A stretch of 64,000 nucleotides of DNA from Candidatus Hecatella orcuttiae (GCA_002011035.2 MTLY02000001.1:448001-512000); one strand, 5' to 3'. Numbered from the stretch's first letter, positions 29,538-42,297 are shown. Made by a program: numbers and translations. Notes: generated by a model from the letters alone, not told the origin.

Positions 29538-29940
29538 TCAATCGCTTTTGCTAACCATACTGTCCCGAAGAAGATAGAGGGAATACAAGTCCTGAGCAGA
29601 TTGGAACTCATATAAATTGTGGAAGAAAGTTTGCGTTTTCAACGGCATACGGCTATATTTTTTATGGCATTCGGAATTCTCGCTGGGAAGATGTTTAGCC
29701 GTCCCTTCCTTGCCTCGCATCTTAGATATAACGGGCTTCATGATGTCGGCATCTAGAATGCCTATTAGGTTTGGTCGACCCTTCCATGCTAGGGCAGTTG
29801 CCAAGTTTCCTGTTACCGTGCTTTTCCCAACGCCACCTTTACCGCTTAGAATGACCAGTTTATGTTTGACCCTTGCCATTGAGGTTTTGATGCAGTGTTC
29901 TTGTTCTTCAATTTCTTTTCTTCGGTCTTTCGTGGGCAGC
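29538..29940 (-). pseudogene. Truncated Mrp/NBP35 (ApbC) Fe-S carrier ATPase
   Basis: VKHKLVILSGKGGVGKSTVTGNLATALA...GILDADI, then similarity is lost. Confidence 0.75.
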
Positions 29941-29950
29941 CCACCTGAAT

Positions 29951-30535
29951 TTACCCTTTCTCAAGTTCTTCCATTCTTTTCTTAACCTGTTCCAGCTGCT
30001 GCTGTAGGTTTTTTATATGGTTTTCAAGCATCTGCATTTCTTGCTCCTTTGACGCAGAGCGATCTGCCACGGAAGAGATACCGGTTGGTGGTTGAGTGGG
30101 ATAAGGCGGGGTAATCTGTCCTCTTCCCCGGCCCATACCTCGGCCCACGCCTCTTCCGCGGCCCATACCTGAGCCCATTCCAAAACCCATGGGAGCGGTA
30201 GGGCCGCCGGTAGCGGTTAGTTGACCTTTCTTGAATCTCTCAACAGCCTCCCTGACCGTGCCTGATGCACCCGTTATGAGTTCGATTCCTGCTGATGAGA
30301 GGACCTGGTAGGCGTTGGGGCCGACGTTTCCTGTTATGACTACTTTTACTCCTTTGTTTGCAACTGTTTGTGCTGCTTGGATTCCGGCGCCGCCCATAGC
30401 ACCTGCGCTGATGTTGGGTATGGCCTCAAACTCCATGGTTTCGCTGTTAACTATTACAAAACACTGGCATCTTCCGAATCGCGGGTCAATTTGAGCGTCT
30501 AAATCGCCGGAAACAGCGCTTACACAAATCTTCAT
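29951..30535 (-). CDS. NifB/NifX-family protein fused to Gly/Arg-rich linker and coiled coil
   Basis: DPRFGRCQCF, GAGIQAAQ, TGNVGPNA; GMGRGRGVGRGMGRGRG; SKEQEMQMLE...VKKRMEEL. Confidence 0.88.
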   Translation of the reverse strand: MKICVSAVSGDLDAQIDPRFGRCQCFVIVNSETMEFEAIPNISAGAMGGAGIQAAQTVANKGVKVVITGNVGPNAYQVLSSAGIELITGASGTVREAVERFKKGQLTATGGPTAPMGFGMGSGMGRGRGVGRGMGRGRGQITPPYPTQPPTGISSVADRSASKEQEMQMLENHIKNLQQQLEQVKKRMEELEKG

Positions 30536-30559
30536 CCATCATGCCTCCTTTTAAGAATA

Positions 30560-30619
30560 TGTGCATTACCACAAAATATAAATATTGCTATTGCACAAAA
30601 TGTTATGTGCAAAAACACA
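30560..30619. promoter_or_regulatory. Three tandem TGTGCA-N2-TGCACA-like sites in a divergent promoter
   Basis: TGTGCATTACCACA (30560), ATTGCTATTGCACA (30584), TGTGCAAAAACACA (30606); related sites at 33652 and ~42187. Confidence 0.55.
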
Positions 30620-30644
30620 TAATTGAGAGGAGAGCTAAATATAA

Positions 30645-30956
30645 ATGGCTTGGGGTTGGTTCGGTCGAGGTCGTGGCGGATGGGCTGGTCCATGGCCAGG
30701 AAGAGGCCCGTTCAGCTACCTGCCTCCTTGGCAGAGACCGGGGTGGTGGTTCGGCAGAGGAGCATATTGGTGGCTCCTCGCACCCTATATCTGGAGCCAA
30801 TACGGGTATCCCAGCTACTATGGATATCCACCTTTCAGATATCAAGCCTACGGTCCATACTCACCACCGCTCGGCTATCCGGCTTACGCGCCTTGGCCGT
30901 ACTTAGGTTATCTAGCCACCGCTCAACAGTATAGATTCCCTCCCCTCTGGTGGTGA
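30645..30956 (+). CDS. Small Gly/Trp/Tyr/Pro-rich low-complexity protein
   Basis: GRGRGGWAGPWPGRGPFSYLPPWQRPGW; SD GAGAGGAG; paralogous remnant at ~42.1 kb. Confidence 0.7.
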   Translation: MAWGWFGRGRGGWAGPWPGRGPFSYLPPWQRPGWWFGRGAYWWLLAPYIWSQYGYPSYYGYPPFRYQAYGPYSPPLGYPAYAPWPYLGYLATAQQYRFPPLWW

Positions 30957-31318
30957 AAGACATGGGTTATAGATGGAGAAGAATGTATTACGCCACAGGT
31001 CTGCCCGGATGGATGAGGTTCGGTTATTCTCCCGGATGGGTGGGCAGATCCCCGACAGGGCTGCCTCCAACTGCTGAATGGTTGATGGTAAGCGGATTAG
31101 TGCCGCAGTACCGTGAATACCTCAGAACACAAGCACTTACTTCTCCGACTGCTGTTCCGTCGACAGCACCGACGCCATCGCTAGGCATCCCGGTAACAAA
31201 GGAACAGGAAAGACAGATGCTCGAGCATCAAGTGAAGGCCATCGAATCCCAACTGGATGCCACGAAAAGGAAACTGGAAAAATTACGCGAGAGCACCTCA
31301 ACCCGGCAACAGCAGTAA
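30950..31318 (+). CDS. DUF5320-like protein (aromatic N-terminus plus coiled coil)
   Basis: GYRWRRMYYATGLPGWMRFGY; TKEQERQMLEHQVKAIESQL; frame continues past the TAA. Confidence 0.75.
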   Translation: MVKDMGYRWRRMYYATGLPGWMRFGYSPGWVGRSPTGLPPTAEWLMVSGLVPQYREYLRTQALTSPTAVPSTAPTPSLGIPVTKEQERQMLEHQVKAIESQLDATKRKLEKLRESTSTRQQQ

Positions 31319-31504
31319 ATTCCATCATACTATCCAGTTGCACCCTACGGTTACCCGCCGATACCCTACGGTACTCCGTCACCTGAAGAAGAACTAACTT
31401 CACTCGAAGACTACAGGAAAAACCTAGGCGATGAAGTCAAAGGCGTAGAGGCTAGAATCGAAGAGTTGAAGAAACTCGTAGAGCAAAAAAAGACCTCCAC
31501 ATAA
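31319..31504 (+). pseudogene. In-frame C-terminal module cut off by a premature TAA
   Basis: IPSYYPVAPYGYPPIPYGTPSPEEELTSLEDYRKNLGDEVKGVEARIEELKKLVEQKKTST*; no obvious own start. Confidence 0.65.
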
Positions 31505-31541
31505 ACGGCTGATAGACCTCATAACGCCTTCCGGTAAGTAG

Positions 31542-31770
31542 ATGGACAAAGAAAGAGCTCGAATAACCGTAGCCAGCTAAAGGAGACTTAGATTATTGTA
31601 TCAAACGTATTCGGTAAGACTGTTACATTCACCCTCACGGATATCGTAAAGGACAACTAAAAATGTGGAAGTACCTAATTCAGCTACATCCTATGAACAT
31701 GTAACCAAACCTATCGTTGTAAAGACTGTTGCAGATTCTGGAGTAAACGTGATAATACAAGTGAGACAGG
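31542..31770 (+). pseudogene. Frameshifted NifB/NifX-family remnant
   Basis: Pieces RITVAS / VSNVFGKTVTFTLTDI / NVEVPNSATSYEH..PIVVKTVADSGVNVII align with the 41606-41875 NifX. Confidence 0.55.
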
Positions 31771-31786
31771 TTTTGGCGAATCAGCG

Positions 31787-32269
31787 TTGCCAAACAACAT
31801 AAACATGTCTCATGAAGTTAAGATATCAAAGATAACCAAAGCAAAGAGGTCTAAGAGTGTTGAAGATTACTTAGAAGCAATATACAATTCGACAAAAAAG
31901 GGCTACGCCAGAAACCTCGAGATCTCCTTCGCCTTAAAAGTCCGACCGCCCAGCGTCACTGAAATGCTACAGAAACTACATCGGAACAAGTTAGTTGTCT
32001 ACGAAAAACGTAAAGGAGTAAAGCTTACACCGAAAGGCGAAAAGCTGGCGAGGACTATAAAACAAAACCACACAATTCTAAAAGAATTTTTTATCGCTCT
32101 AGGTTTAAGCGAGGAAATAGCTGAAGAGAATGCATGCTTAGTTGAGCATTGTATTAATCCTTCAACGGTAAAACGGTTAAGGAAATTTATGCGATACATC
32201 TACAAAATAAATGCAAGAGAGTCAAATGATAGAATGATGCAACTGCCCAAACTTAAAGAGCATCTTTAG
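31787..32269 (+). CDS. DtxR/MntR-family metal-dependent regulator
   Basis: SVEDYLEAIY, VRPPSVTEMLQKL, LTPKGE, NACLVEHCI. Confidence 0.9.
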   Translation: MPNNINMSHEVKISKITKAKRSKSVEDYLEAIYNSTKKGYARNLEISFALKVRPPSVTEMLQKLHRNKLVVYEKRKGVKLTPKGEKLARTIKQNHTILKEFFIALGLSEEIAEENACLVEHCINPSTVKRLRKFMRYIYKINARESNDRMMQLPKLKEHL

Positions 32270-32327
32270 GATTGCTGTTAAAAGAATATAGGGAAACCTT
32301 CGTATTAATAACCAATAAGTAAAGGCG

Positions 32328-32660
32328 GTGCTTATGGCTGGATATCAATGGCGTTGGAGAGGGGGACGAGGACCCGGACGCCCCATGAAGCCGAGAACTA
32401 TAGGAAAGCAGCCGATCATAACACGGTTTGTTCCCGTAATTCCGCCGGAAAAAGTTGATTCACACGGAAAAGAACCTATCGTTATGTCTCAAGATGAATT
32501 TGAAGCTCTTAGGCTTATTGACTATTTAGGCTTATTACAAGAGGAGGCGTCTAAACAGATGGGAATATCTAGGGGTACGGTATGGCGTTGCTTGGACAGT
32601 GCTAGAAGAAAGGTTGCGGCAATGCTTGCTGAGGGACGCGAACTCACTATTGCCACTTGA
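32328..32660 (+). CDS. DUF134 HTH protein
   Basis: GRPMKPR, DEFEALRLIDYLGLLQEEASKQMGISRGT..LDSARRKVA. Confidence 0.9.
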   Translation: MLMAGYQWRWRGGRGPGRPMKPRTIGKQPIITRFVPVIPPEKVDSHGKEPIVMSQDEFEALRLIDYLGLLQEEASKQMGISRGTVWRCLDSARRKVAAMLAEGRELTIAT

Positions 32661-32858
32661 GCATTAATACGAATCGATAAAATCCCCTTAGTATGAAAAA
32701 AGCACGTCAATAATAAAGCAGGCTGTTACCTTAAAAAATGCTCTTGAGTTCCAGAGCAACGTTGCACCTGCAGAGGACAAGAACCTAGAGGGCCACGAAG
32801 TCATGCCTGAACCATAAATTGGATAAACTTTATTTTTTATAGGATAAACTGGGAAAGG

Positions 32859-33512
32859 TTGATGATAAGACATATCCTGCTCGAGTTAAAATATCATTCA
32901 CCTTTTACCTTTATAGGAACTGTTATCGGTATCTCAACTGCCATGGTTTTCTCATTCCTTTTACCAACATCTTTAAGCTTATCGGAGGCTATTTTTCACG
33001 TTTTTCATCCACTTCATATATTATTGAGTGCAACCGCAACTGCGTCTGTTTTTTGGAGGCATAAAAAACAAGTTTCTGAGGCGTTTTTAATTGGTATGTT
33101 TGGGTCTCTAGGCATTTGCAGTATTTCTGACATAATTTTTCCGTATTTGGGTTTATTATCTATTGAAGAAGTGGAATTTCATGTCTGTATTTTAACTCAT
33201 CCGCAAATAGTTTTTCCAGCAGCTTTTATTGGAGTTGTTTTTGGGATCTTATTCACCGAACTCACAAGAAAATCGAGCTTATTCTCACATAGCTCCCATG
33301 TTCTTGTTTCGGCTTTAGCATCAACATTTTACATGGTCGGTTATGGAGAATTACCTTTAATTCAAATACTGCCAATAGGTTTTGCAATAATATTTGTTTC
33401 AGTTTTAATTCCATGCTGTACCTCAGACATAGCTTTTCCGATGTTATTCATAGGCAGAACTACTGATGAAGTTAAATGTATAGGTAAGATAAAACATCAC
33501 CAAGAAAAATAG
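32859..33512 (+). CDS. His/Cys-rich integral membrane protein, putative metal transporter
   Basis: About six hydrophobic segments; HSPFT, FHVFHPLH, CSISD, SHSSH, PCCTSD. Confidence 0.7.
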   Translation: MMIRHILLELKYHSPFTFIGTVIGISTAMVFSFLLPTSLSLSEAIFHVFHPLHILLSATATASVFWRHKKQVSEAFLIGMFGSLGICSISDIIFPYLGLLSIEEVEFHVCILTHPQIVFPAAFIGVVFGILFTELTRKSSLFSHSSHVLVSALASTFYMVGYGELPLIQILPIGFAIIFVSVLIPCCTSDIAFPMLFIGRTTDEVKCIGKIKHHQEK

Positions 33513-33652
33513 TAGTTTTAATTAATTCACAACAGCTTTTATACCCATTAAGGTGCCTATGAAGTTAAAAATCCATGTTAGAGCTTTACCTGTTCATTGT
33601 AGCAGGTTGTCGTCATAACTTAAGCTTTTAATGAGAGTAAGATTTATATTTT

Positions 33653-33967
33653 GTGCATTTGCAATTTTTTAATGTCCGAAAACCTCTTGAGGGGGTGGTT
33701 GTCTTGCCTTACGGTATGGGTCTATGGGGTTGGTTTATAATGCCGTACCCTTACTGGGGTTGGAGTAGGTGTAGGTGGTTCCCTTGGCTTCCCCGATGGT
33801 GGTGGACAGGAATCTATGGGTCCATAACTCCCTTTACAGCTTGGTATGGGCAACCATGGCTTTCAAGGGAAGAGGAAGTGAGATTTCTGGAAGAACAGAA
33901 GAAGCTCTTGGAAGAGCAGCTAAACTGGTTAAGAAAAAGAGTGGAAGAACTAAAAACACAGAAATAG
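33653..33967 (+). CDS. DUF5320-like small protein (Trp/Tyr-rich plus coiled coil)
   Basis: RCRWFPWLPRWWWTG; SREEEVRFLEEQKKLLEEQLNWLRKRVEEL; real start probably ~33705. Confidence 0.7.
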   Translation: MHLQFFNVRKPLEGVVVLPYGMGLWGWFIMPYPYWGWSRCRWFPWLPRWWWTGIYGSITPFTAWYGQPWLSREEEVRFLEEQKKLLEEQLNWLRKRVEELKTQK

Positions 33968-33991
33968 GCACATGTATAGAGGAGGAAAAAA

Positions 33992-34357
33992 ATGAAAGTA
34001 GCCATCCCAACAAAGGGAAATAGAGGTATGGATGAATATGTAAGTGAACACTTTGGAAGGGCACCAACCTTCACCATCGTGGACTTGACTGCAAATGAAG
34101 TAAAAATAATTCCAAACACAAGTGAACATATGGGTGGTTCTGGCTATCCACCTGAAATAATGGCAAGTGAAGGTGTAGATGCAATGCTTTGCTCTAGTCT
34201 AGGGCCGAGAGCCATACAAATGTTTGAGCAATATGGTATTGAGGTTTATGTTGGTGCATACGGAACAGTGCGAAACGCCATTCAAGCATGGCAAGCTGGA
34301 AAGCTTCAAGTAGCTACTGATGAAAATGCATGTAGAATGCATCGACACCATGAATGA
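33992..34357 (+). CDS. NifB/NifX-family protein
   Basis: MKVAIPT, VSEHFGRAPTFTIVD, LGPRA, terminal ACRMHRHHE. Confidence 0.9.
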   Translation: MKVAIPTKGNRGMDEYVSEHFGRAPTFTIVDLTANEVKIIPNTSEHMGGSGYPPEIMASEGVDAMLCSSLGPRAIQMFEQYGIEVYVGAYGTVRNAIQAWQAGKLQVATDENACRMHRHHE

Positions 34358-34363
34358 TCTATC

Positions 34364-35203
34364 ATGAATATAGCGGTGGCAAGTGGTAAAGGAGGAACAG
34401 GAAAAACCACTGTAGCCGTAAACCTAGCACTTTCACTTGAAAATGTTCAGCTTTTAGATTGCGACGTAGAGGAGCCTAACGTTCACATTTTCTTAAACCC
34501 GCAAGTTAACGGCGTCAGAAATGTTTACATACCAGTGCCTAAAGTTGACGAGAAGCTTTGTGATTATTGTGGAAAATGTTCTGAATTTTGCGAATTCCAC
34601 GCAATTGCCGTGATTGCAAAGAAGATACTGGTTTTCCCGAAATTATGTCATGGCTGCGGTGGATGCTTTCTTGTCTGCCCTAAGGGTACTATAAGTGAGA
34701 AGAAGAGAAAGATAGGCGTAGTTAAGAAAGGAACTGCTGCCAAAAACATAGAGATAGTATATGGAGAGTTGAATGTAGGAGAACCGATGTCCAAGCCGGT
34801 GATAAGAGAAGTTAGGAGAGAAAAAGATCCCGGCAAGATAACGATAATTGATGCCCCACCCGGAACCGCTTGCCCTGTGATAGCTTCGGTGTATGGCAGT
34901 GACTACTGTATTCTTGTCACAGACCCTACACCCTTCGGTTTACATGACTTAAAATTGATGGTTGATGTTTTAAGGAAAATTTCCATTCCTTTAGGGATTG
35001 TTGTAAACCGCTCTGGGATCGGCGATGAAAAACTTTACGAATACTGTGAAAAGGAAAAGATTCCGATCCTACTGGAAATACCGTTCAAAAGAAGAATAGC
35101 GGAACTATACTCCCGTGGTATACCCTTCATAACAGAAATGCCTGAGTGGAAAAGTAGATTTCTAGCACTCTTCGAAAATATTAGGATGTATGAAGGCAGA
35201 TGA
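34364..35203 (+). CDS. MinD-superfamily P-loop ATPase with ferredoxin insert (COG1149)
   Basis: SGKGGTGKTT, DCDVEEPN, CDYCGKC..C, CHGCGGC..CP, DAPPGTACP, TPFGLHDL. Confidence 0.92.
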   Translation: MNIAVASGKGGTGKTTVAVNLALSLENVQLLDCDVEEPNVHIFLNPQVNGVRNVYIPVPKVDEKLCDYCGKCSEFCEFHAIAVIAKKILVFPKLCHGCGGCFLVCPKGTISEKKRKIGVVKKGTAAKNIEIVYGELNVGEPMSKPVIREVRREKDPGKITIIDAPPGTACPVIASVYGSDYCILVTDPTPFGLHDLKLMVDVLRKISIPLGIVVNRSGIGDEKLYEYCEKEKIPILLEIPFKRRIAELYSRGIPFITEMPEWKSRFLALFENIRMYEGR

Positions 35204-36069
35204 AGCAGATAGCCATAATCAGCGGGAAGGGAGGAACAGGAAAAACAACACTTACCGCTTCCTTTGCGGCTCTGGCAAAAAACGTTGTAGTGGCCGACTG
35301 CGATGTAGACGCAGCTGACCTTCATCTACTTCTAGAACCGAGGGCGGTGGCTAAGCATGAATTCAGGGGATCTAGGATTCCTATAATCGACGAGTTGGCA
35401 TGTACGAAATGCGGAAAATGCGAAGAAGCTTGCAGATTTAACGCAATAAAAGAGTTTACAGTCAACCTTAACCTTTGTGAAGGATGCGGTGTCTGTGCCT
35501 ATATTTGTCCAACAAGCGCGATAAGTCTTAAGGAGAAAGTATCTGGGCAAGCGTTTATTTCCAAAACTAGATTTGGCCCTATGGCTCATGCAAGGTTAGG
35601 TATTGCGGAAGAAAACTCAGGTAAACTGGTCACACATGTAAGAAATAATGCCAAACAAATAGCTGAAAATGAGAGTAGAAGCTTAATACTGATAGACGGC
35701 CCCCCTGGTATCGGGTGCCCAGTAATAGCATCGCTTACTGGGGTTAACTTGGTTGTGGTGGTTACCGAGCCTACTGTGTCTGGGCTGCATGACCTAGAGA
35801 GAATCTTAGGCGTAGCTGAGCATTTTAGGGTGTTTTCTCTTGTTTGCATAAACATGTACAACATCAATAAAGAAAATACAGAGAAAATAATTGAAATGTG
35901 TAAGCGAAAAGGAATAGATGTTGTGGGAAAGATACCTTTCGACCCTATGGTAACAGAAGCAATGGTTGCAGGAAAAACTGTGATCGAATATTCCCCAAAC
36001 AGCGAAATCTCAAAAAAAATAGAGGAAATATGGAACAAGGTTCTAGATACTCTGAACCAATCAGCCTAA
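35200..36069 (+). CDS. MinD-superfamily P-loop ATPase with ferredoxin insert (COG1149), second paralog
   Basis: SGKGGTGKTT, DCDVDAADL, CTKCGKC, CEGCGVC, EENSGKLV, DGPPGIGCP; ATGA overlap. Confidence 0.92.
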   Translation: MKQIAIISGKGGTGKTTLTASFAALAKNVVVADCDVDAADLHLLLEPRAVAKHEFRGSRIPIIDELACTKCGKCEEACRFNAIKEFTVNLNLCEGCGVCAYICPTSAISLKEKVSGQAFISKTRFGPMAHARLGIAEENSGKLVTHVRNNAKQIAENESRSLILIDGPPGIGCPVIASLTGVNLVVVVTEPTVSGLHDLERILGVAEHFRVFSLVCINMYNINKENTEKIIEMCKRKGIDVVGKIPFDPMVTEAMVAGKTVIEYSPNSEISKKIEEIWNKVLDTLNQSA

Positions 36070-36086
36070 AGGAAGCTGAAAAGTAA

Positions 36087-37076
36087 ATGCCATCTCCTTC
36101 AACGGTATACGGTCCTGTTCCTTCATGGCGTTTGGGACTATCGCTAGGAATAGACCCGTTAATGCCGCCGAAAACCTGCACCTTTGACTGTATCTACTGT
36201 CAGTTGGGTAGAACCGCAAAAAAAGTTTCAAAACCTGAAGAGTTAAAGACAACCGTCACAGTGGAAAAGATTATGGAAGATTTGGAGAAGACTTTAGAAA
36301 GTACCCCTCTAGAGAGCATCGACCATGTGACCTTCTCTGGATCTGGTGAGCCTACGTTAAACTTACAGCTTGGTGAAATGATTGATCATGTTAAAAATAT
36401 CGTAGGCTCCAGTAAACCTGTAGTTGTTTTAACCAACGCTTCCCTAGTCTGCCGTAAAGATGTGAGAGCAAATTTAGCTGAGGCAGACCTGGTTATAGCA
36501 AAGTTGGATGCGCCCACTCAACACTTATTCGAATCTATCAACCGCCCAGCCGAGAATTTGAAGTTGACATCCGTCGTTAAGGGGTTAAGGGCGTTAAGGC
36601 GGGAAACCTTTGGAAGACTGGCATTGCAAATGATGTTCCTGAAATCAGCCACAGACAAGAATACCAACCATCAATATGCCACGGTTAAACGCCTAGCAGA
36701 AATCGCCAGCAGCATAGACCCGGATGAAGTTCAAATAAATACACCGACAAGACCGCCGTCTCGAGAGGATGTAACACCCCTTCATTTATCAGAGATTAAA
36801 GAAATATCAAGGATTATGACGGAAGTATTACCGAGGGTTAGGATACTCGCCAAAGGCAACCATGGCCAAATGAAGGAAAGGAAAAAGAAGGATTCAGTTT
36901 TAGAAACGGAGATATTAGGTCTTTTAAAACGGAGGCCCTGCCGGCTAGTCGACCTAGCAGAAGCGTTCGGTGTAAATGAAGGAAACGTGAAGTTTTACAT
37001 AAATAAACTAGTGGCTTCGGGAGGAGTTACCTCGGTAAGGCTTCATGGGGAAATCTATTATGAAACAGTAAGGTGA
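36087..37076 (+). CDS. Radical SAM protein (COG0731-like) with C-terminal wHTH
   Basis: YGPVPSWRLGLSLGID, CTFDCIYC, SGSGEPTL, INTPTRPP, LLKRRPC. Confidence 0.88.
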   Translation: MPSPSTVYGPVPSWRLGLSLGIDPLMPPKTCTFDCIYCQLGRTAKKVSKPEELKTTVTVEKIMEDLEKTLESTPLESIDHVTFSGSGEPTLNLQLGEMIDHVKNIVGSSKPVVVLTNASLVCRKDVRANLAEADLVIAKLDAPTQHLFESINRPAENLKLTSVVKGLRALRRETFGRLALQMMFLKSATDKNTNHQYATVKRLAEIASSIDPDEVQINTPTRPPSREDVTPLHLSEIKEISRIMTEVLPRVRILAKGNHGQMKERKKKDSVLETEILGLLKRRPCRLVDLAEAFGVNEGNVKFYINKLVASGGVTSVRLHGEIYYETVR

Positions 37077-37082
37077 GAGCAG

Positions 37083-37943
37083 ACGGTTAAAGAGTTACGT
37101 TTAACGGTAGTGGTAGAAGATTCAACTAGCTTAGAAAACCCGCAACTTTTAGCTAAGCATGGACTATGCATCTTTGTGGAAGTAAAAATAGATGAGTTGC
37201 AGGAAGTTGCGATAATGATGGATACTGGTCCTTCCCCGGAGGTTATATCCCATAATATCAACATACTAAATCTTGACGTAAATAAAATAGATGCCATAGT
37301 CCTCAGCCACGGGCATTACGATCATGTCGGCGGCCTCCAAGAGCTCTTAAAGCGAATAAGCAAGCAAATTCCGGTGGTAGCGCACCCAAAAATCTTCAAT
37401 CCAAAATTCTCTTACAAACCTTCTCTGCGGTATATTGGAGCATCGTTTAAGCAATCCAACGTTGAAACAGCCGCAGCGTTACTTTTCGCCTCCAACCCTG
37501 TTACCATCGCCAAGGGAGTTATGACGACGGGGGAGATAGAACGTAAAGTAAAATTTGAAAAGGTTGATGAGTTTCTGACGGTGGAGGAGGGAATGTTCAA
37601 GCAGGACATCTTTCAAGACGACCAAGCACTTGTCGTCAGTTTAGACGGTAAGGGTCTTGTAGTCATTTCAGGTTGTGCTCACTCAGGTTTAATCAATACT
37701 ATTAAACATGCACAAAAGATAACAGGTGTAAGCAATGTCTACGCTGTGCTCGGCGGCTTCCACTTGCTTAAAGCTAATGAGGATAGAATCGAAGCAACGA
37801 TAGATGAACTGCTTAAATTAAACTTGAAAATGGTGAGGCCTTGCCATTGCACTGGTCATAGAGCGGTTAACCGCTTGACTGGTGCCTTCGGGGAACGTTG
37901 TGTTCCCATAAAAACCGGAGATGTTGTAAAAATACAAAGTTGA
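37083..37943 (+). CDS. Metallo-beta-lactamase-fold hydrolase (COG1237)
   Basis: HGL, DTG, LSHGHYDHVGG, DDQAL, GCAHSG, GGFHL, PCHCTG; conserved first strand begins at ACG 37083 (track start 37110). Confidence 0.88.
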   Translation, partial: TVKELRLTVVVEDSTSLENPQLLAKHGLCIFVEVKIDELQEVAIMMDTGPSPEVISHNINILNLDVNKIDAIVLSHGHYDHVGGLQELLKRISKQIPVVAHPKIFNPKFSYKPSLRYIGASFKQSNVETAAALLFASNPVTIAKGVMTTGEIERKVKFEKVDEFLTVEEGMFKQDIFQDDQALVVSLDGKGLVVISGCAHSGLINTIKHAQKITGVSNVYAVLGGFHLLKANEDRIEATIDELLKLNLKMVRPCHCTGHRAVNRLTGAFGERCVPIKTGDVVKIQS

Positions 37944-37956
37944 AGAGGGATATAAA

Positions 37957-38742
37957 ATGTCAAGGAGAATCGTAAGCGAAGTCCTAGATATTTTAGAGAG
38001 GGAGATATCTCGTATAGGAGAGGTTAAGGTTGAGAAAGTCTGCCTAGGGCTGGGTTATACGGGGGTCAAGTTGACCACAGGCCACGCCGGTGTCTGCCAT
38101 AGTCTTCAAGCTGAAATGGCGATTCAATGCTGCCAAGTGGTGAGGCGGGCGGGAAGCTTAGCCGGTAGCCCTGCCCTTGACTTGGCGCATCTCAGCGAAT
38201 CATGGGATCTGGGTGAAAAAGTGGTAGGTGTGGCTGCCTTAAACGCCCTATCCCAGATAGTGTTCGAGGAAAAGCCTCAAAGGTACCGCTTTGAAGAAAG
38301 AAACCTCATAGATGAAATTGAAATAAGAGAAGGCGACACCGTCGCCATGGTGGGGAACATAAAGCCCTTCATCCCCGCCATCAAGTCTAAGACCCGCAGC
38401 CTCTACATCCTAGAAAGAAACCCCATGCGGGAGGAAAACGTCTTCCCTGACTTGGCGGGTGAGGAGATTATTCCTAAAGCCTCAGTGGTTATAATTACCG
38501 GAAGCGCTATCGCTAACGGCACCATAGACCGCCTTCTAGAACTATCCCGAAAAGCTAGGGAGATCGCCATCTCAGGGCCTTCCGCCAGCCTTATCCCCGA
38601 CCCCCTGTTCTGTCGAGGAGTTAAACTTATAGGGGGAATCCGGGTAACCGACCCGGAGAAACTGTTTCAGATAATTGCTGAAGGGGGAGGAACGCCTCAG
38701 ATAAAGCCGGCGGTCAGATTCACCATCATCAAGCCGGGGTGA
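37957..38742 (+). CDS. DUF364-family protein
   Basis: GLGYTGV, VGVAALNALSQ, VAMVG, ITGSAIANGTIDRLL, GPSAS. Confidence 0.85.
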   Translation: MSRRIVSEVLDILEREISRIGEVKVEKVCLGLGYTGVKLTTGHAGVCHSLQAEMAIQCCQVVRRAGSLAGSPALDLAHLSESWDLGEKVVGVAALNALSQIVFEEKPQRYRFEERNLIDEIEIREGDTVAMVGNIKPFIPAIKSKTRSLYILERNPMREENVFPDLAGEEIIPKASVVIITGSAIANGTIDRLLELSRKAREIAISGPSASLIPDPLFCRGVKLIGGIRVTDPEKLFQIIAEGGGTPQIKPAVRFTIIKPG

Positions 38743-38812
38743 TTCTGGGTCTATTATAAACAATTTAGTTTACTAATAGTCTTTATTAACTACTTATGTT
38801 AACCTGTTTTTT

Positions 38813-39706
38813 ATGAAAGCCGCCGCCATCCTTCTGGCAGTAATAGTCGGAGTAGCTTCAGGCTTCTCAGGATTCCTCGCCGGATGCTACACTGCTTCAG
38901 AGCCTAGGAAGGTCATAACACCCTTTTGGGGCGCAGCGACTAGGCTTCCCGGAGCCGAAATAATAACCGTGTACGAGGAAGCCACCGATGTGGAAGTGGA
39001 AGCAACTTGGGGCGGGGCAGGTCAACTGCTTTCTGCGATGGTGATAAGCAAATCCGGAGACCTTTACCTAGGCGTCGGCACACCCTACGACATGGAGATG
39101 GCGATAGAGAAGGGCGCCGTCGACCCTGCCACTGTACGGATACTTGCCTATCTGGTTCCGGTCATACTGGTCCCTGAAGGAAATCCTAAAAACATAACAT
39201 GCCTTGAAAACCTAGTTAAGCCAGATATCAAGCTCAGCCTCACAAATCCGGATTACGGTGTAGGCTTGTTTGTAAAGAAACTGCTTGAGTACAACGGCCT
39301 ATGGGAGGAAGTTGACGGCAGGTTTGTGGAAGCGGAAAGCGGGGAGAAAGCTGTATCCTACGTGATCTTAGGAAACGTGGACGCCACCGTAAGCTGGCAT
39401 GTTTTCTACTACTGGAACCCTGACAAGGTAGACATCGTATGGATCAGCCCTGAGAAAATTCCGGAGGTATCATTCATACCCGCCGCTGTGTCGGTTTACA
39501 CCGAAGACAGGAAGGCAAGCGAGGTATTCCTAGATTTTGTATCCACATCCGAAACCGCCAAAAAGATATTCGACAAATACGGATATGTAGCCACGTTGAA
39601 GCAGGCGACAAAGTATACCCCCTATTCTGAGAATACGTGGCAACGGTGGATGGAGAAGGCTGAGCGTGTTAAAGTATCACTTTTCCAGAACCTAGGCGAA
39701 CGGTAA
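38813..39706 (+). CDS. modA: Molybdate/tungstate ABC substrate-binding protein (ModA-like)
   Basis: N-terminal anchor; GGAGQLLS, GDLYL, VPEGNPKNI..LE.L, IFDKYG; no permease/ATPase adjacent. Confidence 0.72.
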   Translation: MKAAAILLAVIVGVASGFSGFLAGCYTASEPRKVITPFWGAATRLPGAEIITVYEEATDVEVEATWGGAGQLLSAMVISKSGDLYLGVGTPYDMEMAIEKGAVDPATVRILAYLVPVILVPEGNPKNITCLENLVKPDIKLSLTNPDYGVGLFVKKLLEYNGLWEEVDGRFVEAESGEKAVSYVILGNVDATVSWHVFYYWNPDKVDIVWISPEKIPEVSFIPAAVSVYTEDRKASEVFLDFVSTSETAKKIFDKYGYVATLKQATKYTPYSENTWQRWMEKAERVKVSLFQNLGER

Positions 39707-39720
39707 GTTTCTGATGAAAC

Positions 39721-40455
39721 TCAGAGTTTATTTCTGCCGAAGGGGCAGAATACTTCTAAGCCTAAAAGTTTAGCAGCGCCCTTCACCGTAACACCGTACA
39801 AGACATATCTTTTGCAGTACCTGTTGCACTGCCTGAGAATCTCAGGCAGCGTGCCGTTGACGATTGCGCTGCCGGTTATACATGTGACATCTGCTTTCTT
39901 TATGACATTCTCACTCATGGAGCTGTCGAGAATCTCAACCCCCCACTTAACCTTTCCAACGTTTTCAGGGTTAAGGTCAGTTACGTAGACGATGTCGAAG
40001 GCGTTGGAGGTAGCCTTAACGTGGCCCGGCTGGTAGCCGATGTGGGCCACCGTCTTTACCTTTCCAAAGCTTTGCCGGATCTTTTTGACTAGCAGAAGCC
40101 CGCATCGTTCCGCATCGTGACTTCTGCAGTGAACTGTGCAGTCGATTTCCCCTAAGCTGTGCATTAGGGCGTTAAGCACCGAAAAGAATATCGACCTATC
40201 CCCCGAGTCGCCTAACGCTAGATCGGCTACGTCGACGAGTTTCCCGTGGAAAGTCTTAGGCTTGTCCGTGAAGGCTTGGCCGCAGAAACCGTTGAGCTGG
40301 CAGTGGACGATAACTTCTTTTCCCTTCATAAGCGCGTATTCCTTGGATGGTAGTTTAACGAAGTCACTGCCAAGTGCAACGCACTCTACAGGTTTATCCA
40401 TCATGCCTATGGAGGCTAGAAGCTTGAGGAAATCTCTCCTGAGTTGCTCATACAT
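39721..40455 (-). CDS. DUF364-like Rossmann-domain protein
   Basis: GQAFTD, TVHC, IGYQP, TDLNPENVG, ITGSAIVNGT, YGVT. Confidence 0.75.
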   Translation of the reverse strand: MYEQLRRDFLKLLASIGMMDKPVECVALGSDFVKLPSKEYALMKGKEVIVHCQLNGFCGQAFTDKPKTFHGKLVDVADLALGDSGDRSIFFSVLNALMHSLGEIDCTVHCRSHDAERCGLLLVKKIRQSFGKVKTVAHIGYQPGHVKATSNAFDIVYVTDLNPENVGKVKWGVEILDSSMSENVIKKADVTCITGSAIVNGTLPEILRQCNRYCKRYVLYGVTVKGAAKLLGLEVFCPFGRNKL

Positions 40456-40634
40456 TGCTCTAACCCTGAAAGGGCATTCGCTACAATTTATGCCTATACG
40501 GATATCCCTTCTGAAAAATATAAATCCAAATTACCTGCGTTAAGCGGCAAACCATCCGGTACGCCTTCCTAAAATGTTCGCAACCTTCTCACCTTTGCCG
40601 TGCTTCTTGAGGATTGGAACCGAGAATCTAAAAT

Positions 40635-41129
40635 ATGGCAAAACTTCATTGTATAGGTGGAATGTCCCTGAACGATTTTCAAAAACTCCATGACAGCGTA
40701 AGGGAAGGAGACGCTGAACTCACTGAGCGGCTTGTAGGACAGATGAAAGAGAACCTGCCCACCGTAGAAATTCTGGAAAATCTGCTCATCGGAATGGACA
40801 AGGTGAGGGAGAAGTTTGAGAAGGGGGAAATCTTCCCCGTCCATGTAATACGCAGCCTCTCGGCTTTCGCCGCGGGAACAAAGACCTTGGAACTGGCACC
40901 TCCTCGACTGAAAGACCTCTCGGTGAAAGTAGGGCCTTATTCTGGAAATGTTTACGAGGTTACAAAACAGATCTTGTTCGCCGTCTGGAAGTCTTCCGGC
41001 TTTTCGGAGGAGGACCCTCTCAAAAAGGATAAGTGGAGCAGGTGGGGGACCCTTAAAGAGAATGAAGAAACATTGGAGGTCATCATCACCTACTGCCCGA
41101 CTCGACCGCTAAAAATAAGAATATGGTAA
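40635..41129 (+). CDS. Corrinoid-protein cap domain with degenerate B12-binding motif
   Basis: LENLLIGMDKVREKFEKGEIFPVHV cap; GNVYEVTKQI in place of GDxHDIGKNI; truncated Rossmann part. Confidence 0.6.
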   Translation: MAKLHCIGGMSLNDFQKLHDSVREGDAELTERLVGQMKENLPTVEILENLLIGMDKVREKFEKGEIFPVHVIRSLSAFAAGTKTLELAPPRLKDLSVKVGPYSGNVYEVTKQILFAVWKSSGFSEEDPLKKDKWSRWGTLKENEETLEVIITYCPTRPLKIRIW

Positions 41130-41161
41130 AAGTGCCGGCACCGCTGGTTTCGGAAACGATT

Positions 41162-41488
41162 CTAACTGCTGATTACAAGTTCCCGCCCTTCCTCTATCAT
41201 GCTCGCCACTTTTTTCCTAACGCTATCTAGGCAACGCCATATTGTGCCTCTGGAAACTCCCATCCGGCGAGCTGCCTCCTCCTGCATCAAACCCATGTAA
41301 TCAACCAGCCGGAGGTATTCAAACTCATCATAGGTCATCGTCACAGGTTCTTTTACGTAGTTTTCCGCTTTTTCCTTCGGAATGAAGGGGACAAAACGGG
41401 TTATTTCAGGCTCTTTCTCTAAGGTTCTTGGCTTTATGGGGCGCCCCGGCTCAAATCGACGGCGCCAACGCCAGCGATAACCAGCCAT
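41162..41488 (-). CDS. DUF134 HTH protein (paralog of 32328)
   Basis: MAGYRWRW...DEFEYLRLVDYMGLMQEEAARRMGVSRGTIWRCLDS; ATG 41488 matches the paralog start. Confidence 0.88.
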   Translation of the reverse strand: MAGYRWRWRRRFEPGRPIKPRTLEKEPEITRFVPFIPKEKAENYVKEPVTMTYDEFEYLRLVDYMGLMQEEAARRMGVSRGTIWRCLDSVRKKVASMIEEGRELVISS

Positions 41489-41605
41489 AAGGCACCGCTC
41501 TCTACCTCTCTGCCAATGTCTAAAAGGGTTCTGGAAGGGATTTAGTATAGTGCACTTTTTTGATGGCTTCAGCAACTTTGGTTCCGGGCTTAGCTATGAT
41601 TTTGT

Positions 41606-41875
41606 TTATCTTATGTTGAGCAAGATGCTGGGATGCCCCCGGGCCGGTTTCCTCGCGATCACCAAGCTTACGCCTACGTCAACCAGCAACATCACAACCA
41701 TCCGCCCAGTACCATGACGGTGAGGTGCTGAAGGGTTTGGAAGAGCCTTTACGATTTTGGCAACGTCGTCTTCAAAGTCTATTATGGTGAAAGTGCTGGC
41801 TCTGCCGAAGAAGCGGGATACGGTATCTTCCAAGCCTCGGTTTCCGTCGATTGCAACGGCTATTCTGCAGAGCAT
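41606..41875 (-). pseudogene. Truncated NifB/NifX-family protein
   Basis: RIAVAIDGNRGLEDTVSRFFGRASTFTIID...HGTG; C-terminus diverges and ends early. Confidence 0.65.
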
Positions 41876-41889
41876 TCCTTTTCATCCTC

Positions 41890-42130
41890 AGCTTCCACTT
41901 TTTCAATTCTTTGAGTCTTTTGTCGTTCCTCTTGAGTTCTTCGCGGAGGGACCCCGATCCGCGTCTCCAAAAAAGGCCTTTTGGTCTTCTAGAAGCTTAG
42001 CTTCATCTTTAGGCTGCCATGTTTCTGGGGGATAAACCCATGAACCGTATAGGCATGCCCATCTACCATAAAGCCAGCCGGGTCTCTGCCCGGGGTAGGT
42101 GGCTGAAGGGGCCTCTTCCGGGCCATGGAG
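41890..42130 (-). pseudogene. Frameshifted DUF5320-like remnant
   Basis: PWPGRGPFSHLP / QRPGWLYGR...PKDEAKLLEDQKAF / SLREELKRNDKRLKELKK across frames; matches the 30645 protein and the coiled-coil module. Confidence 0.65.
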
Positions 42131-42297
42131 TTAGCCAGCCTTCTTAAATTCTTCTAGGCTAGCACATTTTTGCTCTAGAATATTTATGCACATATAGTTT
42201 TGCTGAAACGTTTAAATTCCAGAAAAACTTATACGTTGAAGCCTGCAAAAACCGTAAAAGGCTGGAAAACATCTAAAAAAAGCTCAGTGAAAGATAA

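Follow-up and report, generated by a model that had tools for sequence, protein, structure and literature searches.

DUF5320 proteins and NifX-type carriers in a genomic island of Candidatus Hecatella orcuttiae: a modular family in a possible archaeal version of an IssA/ORP-type system

A 64-kb stretch of the Candidatus Hecatella orcuttiae genome (GCA_002011035.2, MTLY02000001.1:448001-512000; referred to here in its entirety as the window, with positions counted from its first nucleotide) carries at 29.5-42.2 kb an island of ~20 genes, delineated by open reading frame (ORF) calls and Pfam and NCBIfam searches, several of which encode small proteins with aromatic, Arg-rich N-terminal parts (heads) and a repeated coiled coil. 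The repeated module is no new element: it is the Pfam family DUF5320 (PF17253), which proved to be a modular family of four types, F (a fusion to a NifX-type domain), N, A, and B, with one shared heptad coiled coil. DUF5320 genes are tightly linked to those encoding NifX-type carriers, a pair of COG1149 ATPases, Mrp, DUF134 proteins, and a DtxR-type repressor, and often to genes for radical S-adenosylmethionine (radical SAM, rSAM) and metallo-β-lactamase (MBL)-fold proteins. By analogy to published systems, the island could represent an archaeal version of an IssA/ORP-type system that handles metal sulfide, a reading that we favor tentatively and to which we assign somewhat less than an even chance. 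The storage and traffic of Fe and S in strict anaerobes are poorly understood, IssA being the only characterized Fe-S store, and a full-text literature search found no functional study of DUF5320 or PF17253. The copy in the window is by itself ordinary, one more, partly decayed copy of a known, uncharacterized kind of system. What is new for DUF5320, and makes the family testable, is its organization into four head types with one coiled coil, the finding of NifX as its sole globular fusion partner, and its presence in the tractable organisms Methanosarcina acetivorans and Thermotoga maritima, both of which gave DUF5320 matches in a control search.

The PF17253 matches of two island copies are above the 27-bit gathering cutoff: the NifX fusion at 29951 (47.0 bits) and the ORF listed from 33653 (28.3 bits), with scores of 48.5 and 27.2 bits, respectively, in the genome scan. 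The ORFs at 30950 and 31319-31504 score below the cutoff singly (14.6 and 16.3 bits) and reach 33.7 bits when summed in frame; each of them matches only the last 33 to 37 profile positions, in the coiled-coil region (positions 62-99). A custom hidden Markov model (HMM) of the coiled coil, built from the last 48 residues of 158 homologs with the window's own protein excluded, was run against all 50,466 six-frame stop-to-stop ORFs of at least 20 amino acids (aa) in the 1.75-Mb genome. It gave four matches, all of them in the island (E = 5.8e-21, 9.1e-20, 6.1e-13, and 1.5e-6), and the next best match anywhere in the genome had E = 0.085; the scores were 75.3 bits for 33653, 49.6 bits for 30950, and 29.0 bits for 31319-31504. 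A first-pass annotation of this DNA had counted five copies of the coiled coil. Four of these are significant; they belong to three genes, the copies at 30950 and 31319-31504 being parts of a single gene, and the fifth lies in one decayed gene, where the coiled-coil part alone falls short of significance.

The same annotation had treated the coiled coils as one family, and this view held: they are of the PF17253 type, and their cores are 46 to 53% identical across types and across archaea and bacteria, so they align as one family. The 32-residue cores have an identity of 0.53 between proteins of the same type from different loci, 0.50 between types within a locus, and 0.46 between proteins that differ in both locus and type, values that span archaeal and bacterial sequences. 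The consensus of 95 distinct cores from 100 loci, KEQEIxMLExQAKxLEQQLExIRKRLEEL, has hydrophobic columns spaced 4-3-4-3, the last two columns being fixed by the alignment anchor used. Proteins of types F, A, and B end in this common coiled coil, and the type N gene adjoins a coiled-coil gene. Among 177 distinct coiled-coil ORFs in the 100 loci, 44 are NifX fusions and all the rest have only aromatic/Arg heads; the only additional Pfam domain found in the longer DUF5320 proteins is, on weak evidence, NifX. The archaeal forms differ from the Pfam model in that the N-terminal half (type N) is separated from the coiled coil and the heads of types A and B are poorly covered.

Type F is encoded on the minus strand at 29951..30535 and consists of a NifX-type domain (PF02579, 89.5 bits, residues 13-103), a (G/M/R)-rich linker, a Pro-rich stretch, and the DUF5320 coiled coil. 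The 120 best homologs listed, of 7,545 matches, all combine NifX with DUF5320. The tail has 16 Gly in its 86 residues and a pI of 9.98; the pI of the whole protein is 9.10.

Type N, encoded on the plus strand at 30645..30956, has no coiled coil and was assigned through its homologs: the 30645 protein has no Pfam match at E≤10, and none of 13 family members matches PF17253. A profile search against 1.84 billion representatives found 80 relatives at E≤1e-3; 19 of the 39 relatives scanned carry DUF5320, and two matched over profile positions 10-99. A split form is present in a genome of the same class (locus L034), where three ORFs lie in succession: one that lacks a coiled coil and whose match (67.6 bits) is confined to profile positions 1-63, one with a coiled coil, and NifX. 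Because many of its relatives carry DUF5320 and the split form exists in L034, we identify 30645 as a stand-alone N-terminal half of DUF5320. It had been described as almost entirely low-complexity sequence, which is correct with regard to composition, but this split half retains 22 invariant columns in 13 sequences (GPWPGRGPxSxLPPWxRPGWxFGRG..WW).

Type A, on the plus strand at 30962..31318 (custom HMM, 49.6 bits; the ATG at 30962 is the likely start by alignment, within the ORF listed from 30950), has a GYRWRRMYYxTGLPGW head and a first coiled coil and is ended by a premature TAA. The cut-off C-terminal part, a Tyr/Pro linker and a second coiled coil at 31319..31504 on the same strand (29.0 bits), follows the TAA (31316-31318) directly and in frame and has no start codon. 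In four relatives from the same family, type A orthologs are continuous proteins of 158 to 176 aa with both coiled coils; 30950 and 31319-31504 thus belong to a single gene with two coiled coils, which an in-frame stop interrupts. Contigs of two further sequencing runs (X6, covering 30926-31357, and X7, covering 30998-31340) contain the TAA internally with 0 differences, so the stop is real in the population. The longer form of the head, GYRWRRMYYxTGLPGWxRFGYSPGW, recurs from archaea to bacteria, and the second coil is present in only 7 of the 56 distinct type A proteins from the 100 loci, the others having a median length of 117 aa. With its single coil, the truncated product thus resembles the form found most often and may remain functional.

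Type B, on the plus strand at 33704..33967 (28.3 bits with PF17253; the ORF is listed from 33653, and TTG at 33704 is the likely start), combines an invariant CRWFPWLPRWWWTG core with the coiled coil. Its homologs are 73 to 105 aa long and start with MP(Y/F)G(M/L)GPWGW. In 32 of them, C20, R21, P24-R28, W31, and G33 are invariant (C-R-x-x-P-W-L-P-R-x-x-W-x-G), and the invariant columns together with those kept in at least 90% of the sequences give the core RCRWFPWLPRWWWTGIYGP. A Foldseek search of the PDB with the type B model returned no matches at E≤10, the confidence of the model being low outside the C-terminal helix.

The fifth copy, on the minus strand at 41880..42143, is a decayed gene for a protein with a type N head and a coiled coil, interrupted by three frameshifts; it was recognized with the type N HMM and by alignment to a protein of locus L089. 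Read through the frameshifts, with X at the breaks, it scores 44.2 bits (E = 5.9e-11) on the 30645-family HMM. Over 98 columns it is 42% identical (E = 3e-21) to the L089 protein, an intact 110-aa combination of a type N head and a coiled coil from a metagenome-assembled genome (MAG) labeled Methanocellales. At the start of the remnant (42140-42093), 13 of 16 positions match residues 12 to 27 of 30645, and its DNA forms a 36-nucleotide (nt) inverted repeat with 30689-30724 that is 89% complementary. The coiled-coil part alone gives 8.8 bits (E = 3), or 6.8 bits when read through, and none of the three frames has a Pfam match. A truncated NifX gene lies directly downstream.

The heads had been characterized as low-complexity sequence. 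Their composition is indeed rich in aromatic, Gly, Pro, and Arg residues, but the 22 invariant type N columns and the invariant type B core indicate that they are conserved, position-specific motifs and not unconstrained low complexity. Aromatic residues comprise up to 33% of a head, acidic residues are absent except for two in type A, and the pI values range from 9.6 to 10.3. In the separate proteins, 34 of 103 residues (30645), 20 of 83 (33716), and 11 of 118 (30962) are aromatic. A single conserved Cys is invariant in type B and is present in most type N sequences but is replaced by Tyr in the 30645 protein of the window. In AlphaFold2 (AF2) models obtained with family alignments, only the C-terminal helix of type B is confident (predicted local distance difference test score [pLDDT], 85-95), while the heads have pLDDT values of 44 to 67 (mean of 54 for type N), in line with tails that are disordered or fold by induced fit. 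In other genomes, a stretch with three cysteines (C-x6-C-x14-C, ...CxNFRDGxC...CPxFTPK) occurs in some DUF5320 coiled-coil proteins; it is not named in Pfam and may serve as a metal site. This stretch lies between the head and the coiled coil in L123:7590-8114 and L128:7422-7934 and is N-terminal in L037:4001-4462 and L038:8807-9157.

The linkage of DUF5320 to NifX and COG1149 genes, proposed from this one genome, is borne out across genomes. A scan for the WLPRWWW core with one genome per species yielded at least 599 stretches. After confirmation of 104, the analysis was confined to the best 80, which include many short contigs. Homologs of NifX are encoded in 65 of the 80 loci, COG1149 in 52, DUF134 in 39, Mrp in 25, and MBL and radical SAM in 23 each; DtxR (11), DUF364-type proteins (10), the membrane protein described below (5), and ModA-like proteins (2) are rarer. 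At least two coiled-coil ORFs are found in 50 of these loci, at least three in 25, and types A, B, and F together in 29. The archaeal MAGs represented are labeled Bathyarchaeia, Hecatellales, Brockarchaeota, Hadarchaeota, Methanocellales, Thermoplasmata, Woesearchaeota, and Aenigmatarchaeota, and the bacterial labels include WOR-3, Stahlbacteria, Omnitrophica, Planctomycetia, Thermodesulfobacteriota, Acetothermia, and Aminicenantes; there is no locus from Thermococcales among the 80. DUF5320 is conserved from Bathyarchaeia to several bacterial phyla, almost always beside NifX-type carriers. Closer to the window, 19 of 31 relatives (its own genome included) have DUF5320, often in two to five copies, and among 20 loci of relatives, 18 contain a NifX domain, 15 contain COG1149, and 13 contain type N. 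The gene order that recurs in relatives is F > N > A > NifX < rSAM > B > NifX > COG1149a > COG1149b > DUF134. In a phylum-wide sample of 201 genomes, DUF5320 was detected in 48 and PF02579 in 104; 45 of the 48 DUF5320-positive genomes have PF02579, compared with 59 of the 153 DUF5320-negative ones, and in the three DUF5320 genomes without PF02579 the DUF5320 matches are below the cutoff.

These families had been taken to belong to no defined pathway; two published systems are nevertheless relatives of the island, IssA (PMC5524996) and the ORP complex (PMC6345978). As described for Pyrococcus furiosus, IssA (PF2025) has an N-terminal IPR003731 domain and a 70-residue tail in which a Pro-rich part precedes cationic, aromatic, and Gly residues; the tail has 14 aromatic residues and the only cysteine of the protein, the proposal being that it wraps around anionic thioferrate, and the structures into which the protein assembles measure 20 to 300 nm (PMC5524996). 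The same paper delimits the IssA clade by a Gly-rich C-terminal region and a high predicted pI, notes that many of its members keep Trp/Gly/Arg patterns, and describes a mesophilic, uncharacterized IssX clade with Gly-rich tails (PMC5524996; Vaccaro et al. 2017). In Methanococcus voltae grown on FeS2 (pyrite), two IssA homologs and DtxR are up-expressed and a thioferrate-like electron paramagnetic resonance signal is seen (PMC8516115). The 29951 protein shares with IssA, as described in PMC5524996, a NifX-type (IPR003731) domain at the N terminus and, after it, a Pro-rich stretch and a tail that is cationic and rich in Gly, and with its pI of 9.1 it has both features used to delimit the clade. 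The Trp/Gly/Arg-rich character resides here in the neighboring small proteins. The aromatic part thus differs from that of IssA in being carried by separate polypeptides (N, A, and B), leaving the NifX protein itself without an aromatic-rich tail. The single conserved Cys of types B and N is reminiscent of the sole cysteine described in the IssA tail.

The ORP complex of Desulfovibrio includes Orp3 and Orp4, with two ferredoxin motifs each, a NifX-like Orp8 with a non-covalently held Mo-Cu-S cluster, Orp5, and MrpORP; Orp3, Orp4, and Orp8 copurify, MrpORP passes Fe-S to Orp3-4-8, and the role of the complex is described as unknown (PMC6345978, PMC8359166). In 78% of cells, MrpORP is found at a single pole, and a connection exists between orp genes and defects in cell shape (PMC6345978, PMC8359166). 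By domain content, the island resembles this complex in its two paralogous ATPases with two [4Fe-4S] ferredoxin motifs each, its single-domain NifX-like protein (33992, of the Orp8 type), its Mrp/NBP35 gene, and its restriction to anaerobes. It differs in that its Mrp is an 80-residue remnant without a NifX domain and not a two-domain MrpORP, and no sigma-54 activator domain (OrpR) was found in the 20 island ORFs, which encode two DUF134 proteins and a DtxR/MntR-type regulator instead. The DUF5320 paralogs that are prominent in the island are not among the ORP subunits named in the two reports (PMC6345978, PMC8359166). NifX, NafY, and the C-terminal domain of NifB are non-covalent carriers of anionic metal-sulfur clusters (PMC5524996), including FeMo-co and NifB-co, and the island carriers share their PF02579 fold family; the island differs in having no nitrogenase genes, and the NifB-like ORF of the genome lies elsewhere.

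If the island is a version of such a system, the coiled coils would hold types F, A, and B together as hetero-oligomers around the NifX carriers, with N bound through its partner. The cationic Trp/Tyr/Arg/Gly heads would act like the IssA tail, partly as separate polypeptides, by wrapping and stabilizing anionic metal-sulfide species held by the NifX domains; these species would probably be Fe-S (thioferrate-like or cluster precursors) and possibly Mo/W-S. The COG1149 ATPases and Mrp would load or withdraw clusters, and DUF134 and DtxR would adjust expression to the metal status. A coiled-coil assembly built around NifX carriers makes a reasonable model because the coil is common to the paralogs and the NifX fusion and because NifX is the sole globular fusion partner found. 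To this extent, the scaffold envisioned in the first-pass annotation stands as a model; its reading as a novel orphan pathway or a Mo/W-pterin condensate is not supported.

Several observations weigh against an IssA/ORP-type metal sulfide system. Net charges amount to a modest +3 to +7, with the coiled coils nearly neutral. The tail of 29951 has only 2 aromatic residues in 86, compared with 14 in 70 in IssA, and it ends in a conserved coiled coil, a feature absent from the published description of IssA. By the criteria of Johnson et al. (PMC8351635, Table 5), IssA-clade homologs were present in none of three Bathyarchaeota genomes. The ATPases, radical SAM protein, and MBL protein of the operon fit assembly or maturation at least as well as passive storage. 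In addition, several members are broken in this genome (the truncated Mrp, the premature stop in the type A gene, and the broken DUF5320-NifX pair), so this copy of the island may be only partly functional. A further-reaching version of the same idea, which we regard as unlikely, is a split IssA, in which F, N, A, and B would be subunits of a single coiled-coil-bundled, hetero-oligomeric matrix that templates and coats an inorganic metal-sulfide polymer or granule. The conserved Cys residues of the B and N heads, gathered by the coiled coil, would nucleate or cap the mineral, and the granule would be charged, discharged, or positioned by the MinD-like ATPases with their ferredoxin domains. Such a matrix, if real, would be a widespread, undescribed organelle-like store of Fe-S (or Mo/W-S) in anaerobic archaea and bacteria.

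The main rival of a storage-type system, which we consider possible but distinctly less probable, is that the DUF5320 proteins do not belong to a store but serve as accessory subunits in an ORP-type complex for assembly or transfer. They would escort or gate clusters en route to client enzymes, these clusters either moving among Mrp, the NifX carriers, and the COG1149 ATPases or being built there with the help of the radical SAM protein. The domain content of the island matches that of the ORP complex (PMC6345978), the ATPases, radical SAM, and MBL proteins recur in 52, 23, and 23 of the 80 loci, respectively, and the NifX 33992 family keeps invariant His and Cys residues typical of cluster ligands. 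Yet the ORP complex as named in the report comprises Orp3, 4, 5, 8, and 9, with no DUF5320-like subunit, no client enzyme is linked to the loci, and the data fit transfer and storage alike. Less likely still is a role of DUF5320 proteins as adaptors for the MinD/ParA-like ATPases, with the disordered basic head and coiled coil linking a cargo, either an Fe-S particle or a NifX complex, to the COG1149 or Mrp ATPases for positioning or partition. McdB-type partners link cargo to ParA-like ATPases in this manner; they are small proteins with a disordered basic region and a coiled coil, encoded beside a ParA/MinD-family ATPase. The island ATPases differ from those partnered by McdB in carrying ferredoxin inserts and having no known cargo. 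The deviant Walker A motif KGGTGKT is found in the two COG1149 proteins, which also match MinD structures, and in the Hadarchaeota-labeled loci L122, L123, and L132 DUF5320 adjoins Mrp with no NifX or COG1149 homolog detected in the stretch that was fetched. The polar position of MrpORP in 78% of cells and the tie of orp genes to cell-shape defects (PMC6345978, PMC8359166) would also suit an adaptor. The linkage to NifX (65 of 80 loci) nevertheless exceeds that to the ATPase (52 of 80), NifX is the sole fusion partner found, and no ATPase-stimulating peptide was identified.

Two further explanations seem very improbable to us. According to a strict condensate model, the aromatic/RG-rich proteins would be disordered and phase-separate, concentrating enzymes of Mo/W-pterin or metallocofactor assembly. 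The richness of the heads in aromatic, Arg, and Gly residues, their low AF2 confidence, and the presence of a ModA-like gene and a radical SAM gene in the operon are consistent with this model, but condensate-forming proteins are described as having composition-driven "sticker" tracts, unlike the DUF5320 heads with their strongly conserved position-specific motifs. The link to Mo/W-pterin is also weak: ModA-like genes occur in just 2 of the 80 loci, the radical SAM protein is far below the cutoffs of the MoaA and W-maturase models, and no pterin genes are present by NCBIfam. We give equally little credence to DUF5320 proteins as regulatory partners of DUF134 that would bind or sequester this helix-turn-helix (HTH) protein, with its similar Trp/Arg-rich N terminus, depending on Fe-S status. 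DUF134 genes are found in 39 of the 80 loci, many DUF134 proteins start with (W/Y)RWR-type runs resembling the type A head, and a 20-nt motif is common to two promoter regions of the island; half of the loci, however, lack DUF134, the N-terminal likeness is short, with many DUF134 proteins having plain arginine runs, and three or four structural paralogs plus a NifX fusion exceed what a regulator's partner would need.

The 20-nt motif, CACAAAATATAAATMTTRCT, is located at 30570-30589 on the plus strand, in the divergent promoter region between the type F and type N genes, and its second copy is at 33636-33655 on the minus strand, upstream of the type B gene. These are the 2 matches in the 64-kb window, compared with 0.00 expected, and a 9-mer core of the motif adjoins the first cluster gene in the loci of four relatives, making it a candidate operator or promoter element.

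All the other gene families named in the first-pass annotation, i.e., NifX-like carriers, two COG1149 ATPases, an Mrp remnant, a radical SAM protein, an MBL protein, two DUF364 proteins, ModA, and two DUF134 proteins, were recovered with Pfam and NCBIfam. The left end of the island, on the minus strand, comprises the type F gene and, at 29538..29927, the remnant of an Mrp/NBP35-type Fe-S carrier ATPase, which retains the N-terminal ~80 of ~280 residues. Its ParA/NUBPL match in Pfam (61.6 bits) covers only residues 3 to 65, its best NCBIfam model, MrpORP (NF041136), gives 57.7 bits against a cutoff of 450, and in tblastn searches three orthologs of 276 to 280 aa align through residues 3 to 82 only, at 29927-29700, with 62 to 70% identity. 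The divergent plus-strand series starts with the type N gene and the type A gene with its cut-off continuation, followed by genes for a DtxR/MntR-family metal-dependent repressor (31787..32269; PF01325 and PF02742; 108 bits with the NCBIfam MntR model, below its cutoff of 138), a DUF134 (UPF0251) HTH protein with a Trp/Arg-rich N terminus (32328..32660; PF02001, 80.8 bits), and a 217-aa membrane protein of an unnamed family (32859..33512) without a Pfam or NCBIfam match. Atlas neighbors of the membrane protein belong to unnamed bacterial families, and its weak resemblance to the TRIC/Gly_transporter-like fold (TM score, 0.56) offers no more than a lead; a metal channel or transporter is one possibility. 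Its homologs, found in 5 of the 80 loci, adjoin a DtxR-type repressor in Hadarchaeota-labeled loci.

The plus-strand series continues with the type B gene and a 121-aa single-domain NifX-like protein (33992..34357; PF02579, 86.1 bits), whose orthologs are likewise encoded directly downstream of type B genes and whose family has H20, H46, and C114 invariant in 23 sequences. Four of its orthologs (L096:8265-8720, L081:8311-8772, L083:2002-2469, and L086:8343-8810) are 148 to 156 aa long and have an additional N-terminal helix-like stretch (..EELEKIKRKKLLEL..) that the protein of the window lacks. At 34364..36069, with starts at 34364 and 35200, are the two paralogous MinD-like P-loop ATPases of the COG1149 type (Orp3/Orp4-like), each with CbiA/ParA and Fer4 matches in Pfam and an inserted 2×[4Fe-4S] ferredoxin domain, in which both Fer4 stretches and their Cys motifs are visible in the sequence. 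Their PDB relatives combine MinD and ferredoxin domains, and their Walker A motif is that of MinD/ParA-type dimers. The radical SAM protein (36087..37076; PF04055, 36.5 bits) has a winged HTH-like C-terminal end; its NCBIfam matches, including those to the MoaA and W-maturase models, are all weak and far below the cutoffs, and a sequence search found no PDB relative. It is followed by a COG1237-type MBL-fold protein (37110..37943; PF00753; PDB entries 2p4z, 3h3e, and 7dck at E values of 1e-26 to 1e-30), a DUF4213-DUF364 protein (37957..38742; PF13938 and PF04016), and a ModA-like periplasmic binding protein (38813..39706; PF13531, 127.7 bits; TIGR01256 modA, 55.6 bits against a cutoff of 62.5).

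The right end is mainly on the minus strand. A DUF364-like protein (39721..40455, minus strand) matches PF04016 in part (51.8 bits, profile positions 9-102 of 147), and what a plus-strand ORF at 40635..41129 encodes of a corrinoid protein is the B12-binding cap domain alone (PF02607, 40.5 bits; positions 16-115 of 203 of the NCBIfam MtbC model, far below the cutoff). This ORF of the decaying right end is probably a fragment of a gene and probably lies outside the system. The truncated NifX-like gene beside the DUF5320 remnant (41606..41875, minus strand; PF02579, 38.3 bits, profile positions 2-61 of 94) forms a long branch in the tree, where its closest neighbor is the short NifX type encoded after the type A or type F genes of relatives. 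The second DUF134 gene (41162..41575, minus strand; PF02001, 77.2 bits, residues 43-135) has a likely start at about 41488 (MAGYRWRW), and both DUF134 proteins begin, as had been noticed, with GY-x-WRWR (..AGY(Q/R)WRWR). Many cluster-linked DUF134 proteins (L075-L154) have Trp/Arg runs such as MPRWRW, GYRWRWRRR, or MWTWRRRW before a conserved RPxKPR; others have plain arginine runs, and the likeness to the type A head is short.

The 12.7-kb island lies inside the ribosomal protein row L3-L4-L23 / L2-S19, flanked by the genes for L23 (29217-29483) and L2 (42298-43011). The gap between these two genes is 11 to 107 bp in 23 of 29 loci from relatives; two others have a 1.24-kb gene in it, and the remaining four have other genes upstream of L2 and no L23 within 1.5 kb of it. 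Given these insertions and other genes in some relatives, the L23-L2 junction seems insertion tolerant in this lineage. The G+C content of the island is 0.454, compared with 0.518 for the genome, and its gene order is also present in relatives from the same family. Both edges consist of broken genes (Mrp on the left and the DUF5320-NifX pair on the right). Searches of the flanks revealed no tRNA and no direct repeats, the only long repeat between the ends being the coding motif common to 30645 and the remnant, and these searches identified no mechanism of insertion. Within its own genome, phmmer searches found the island gene types confined to the island, and the Pfam model placed all NifX domains there except one. 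The exception belongs to a 419-aa NifB-like ORF outside the window (G000:C1:363243-364499, minus strand) that combines the CxxxCxxC motif of radical SAM proteins with a NifX domain at its C terminus (PF02579, 67.8 bits). A NifB-like role of the island radical SAM protein was considered and rejected: it is not among the NifB-type matches, and the genome has this separate NifB-like ORF.

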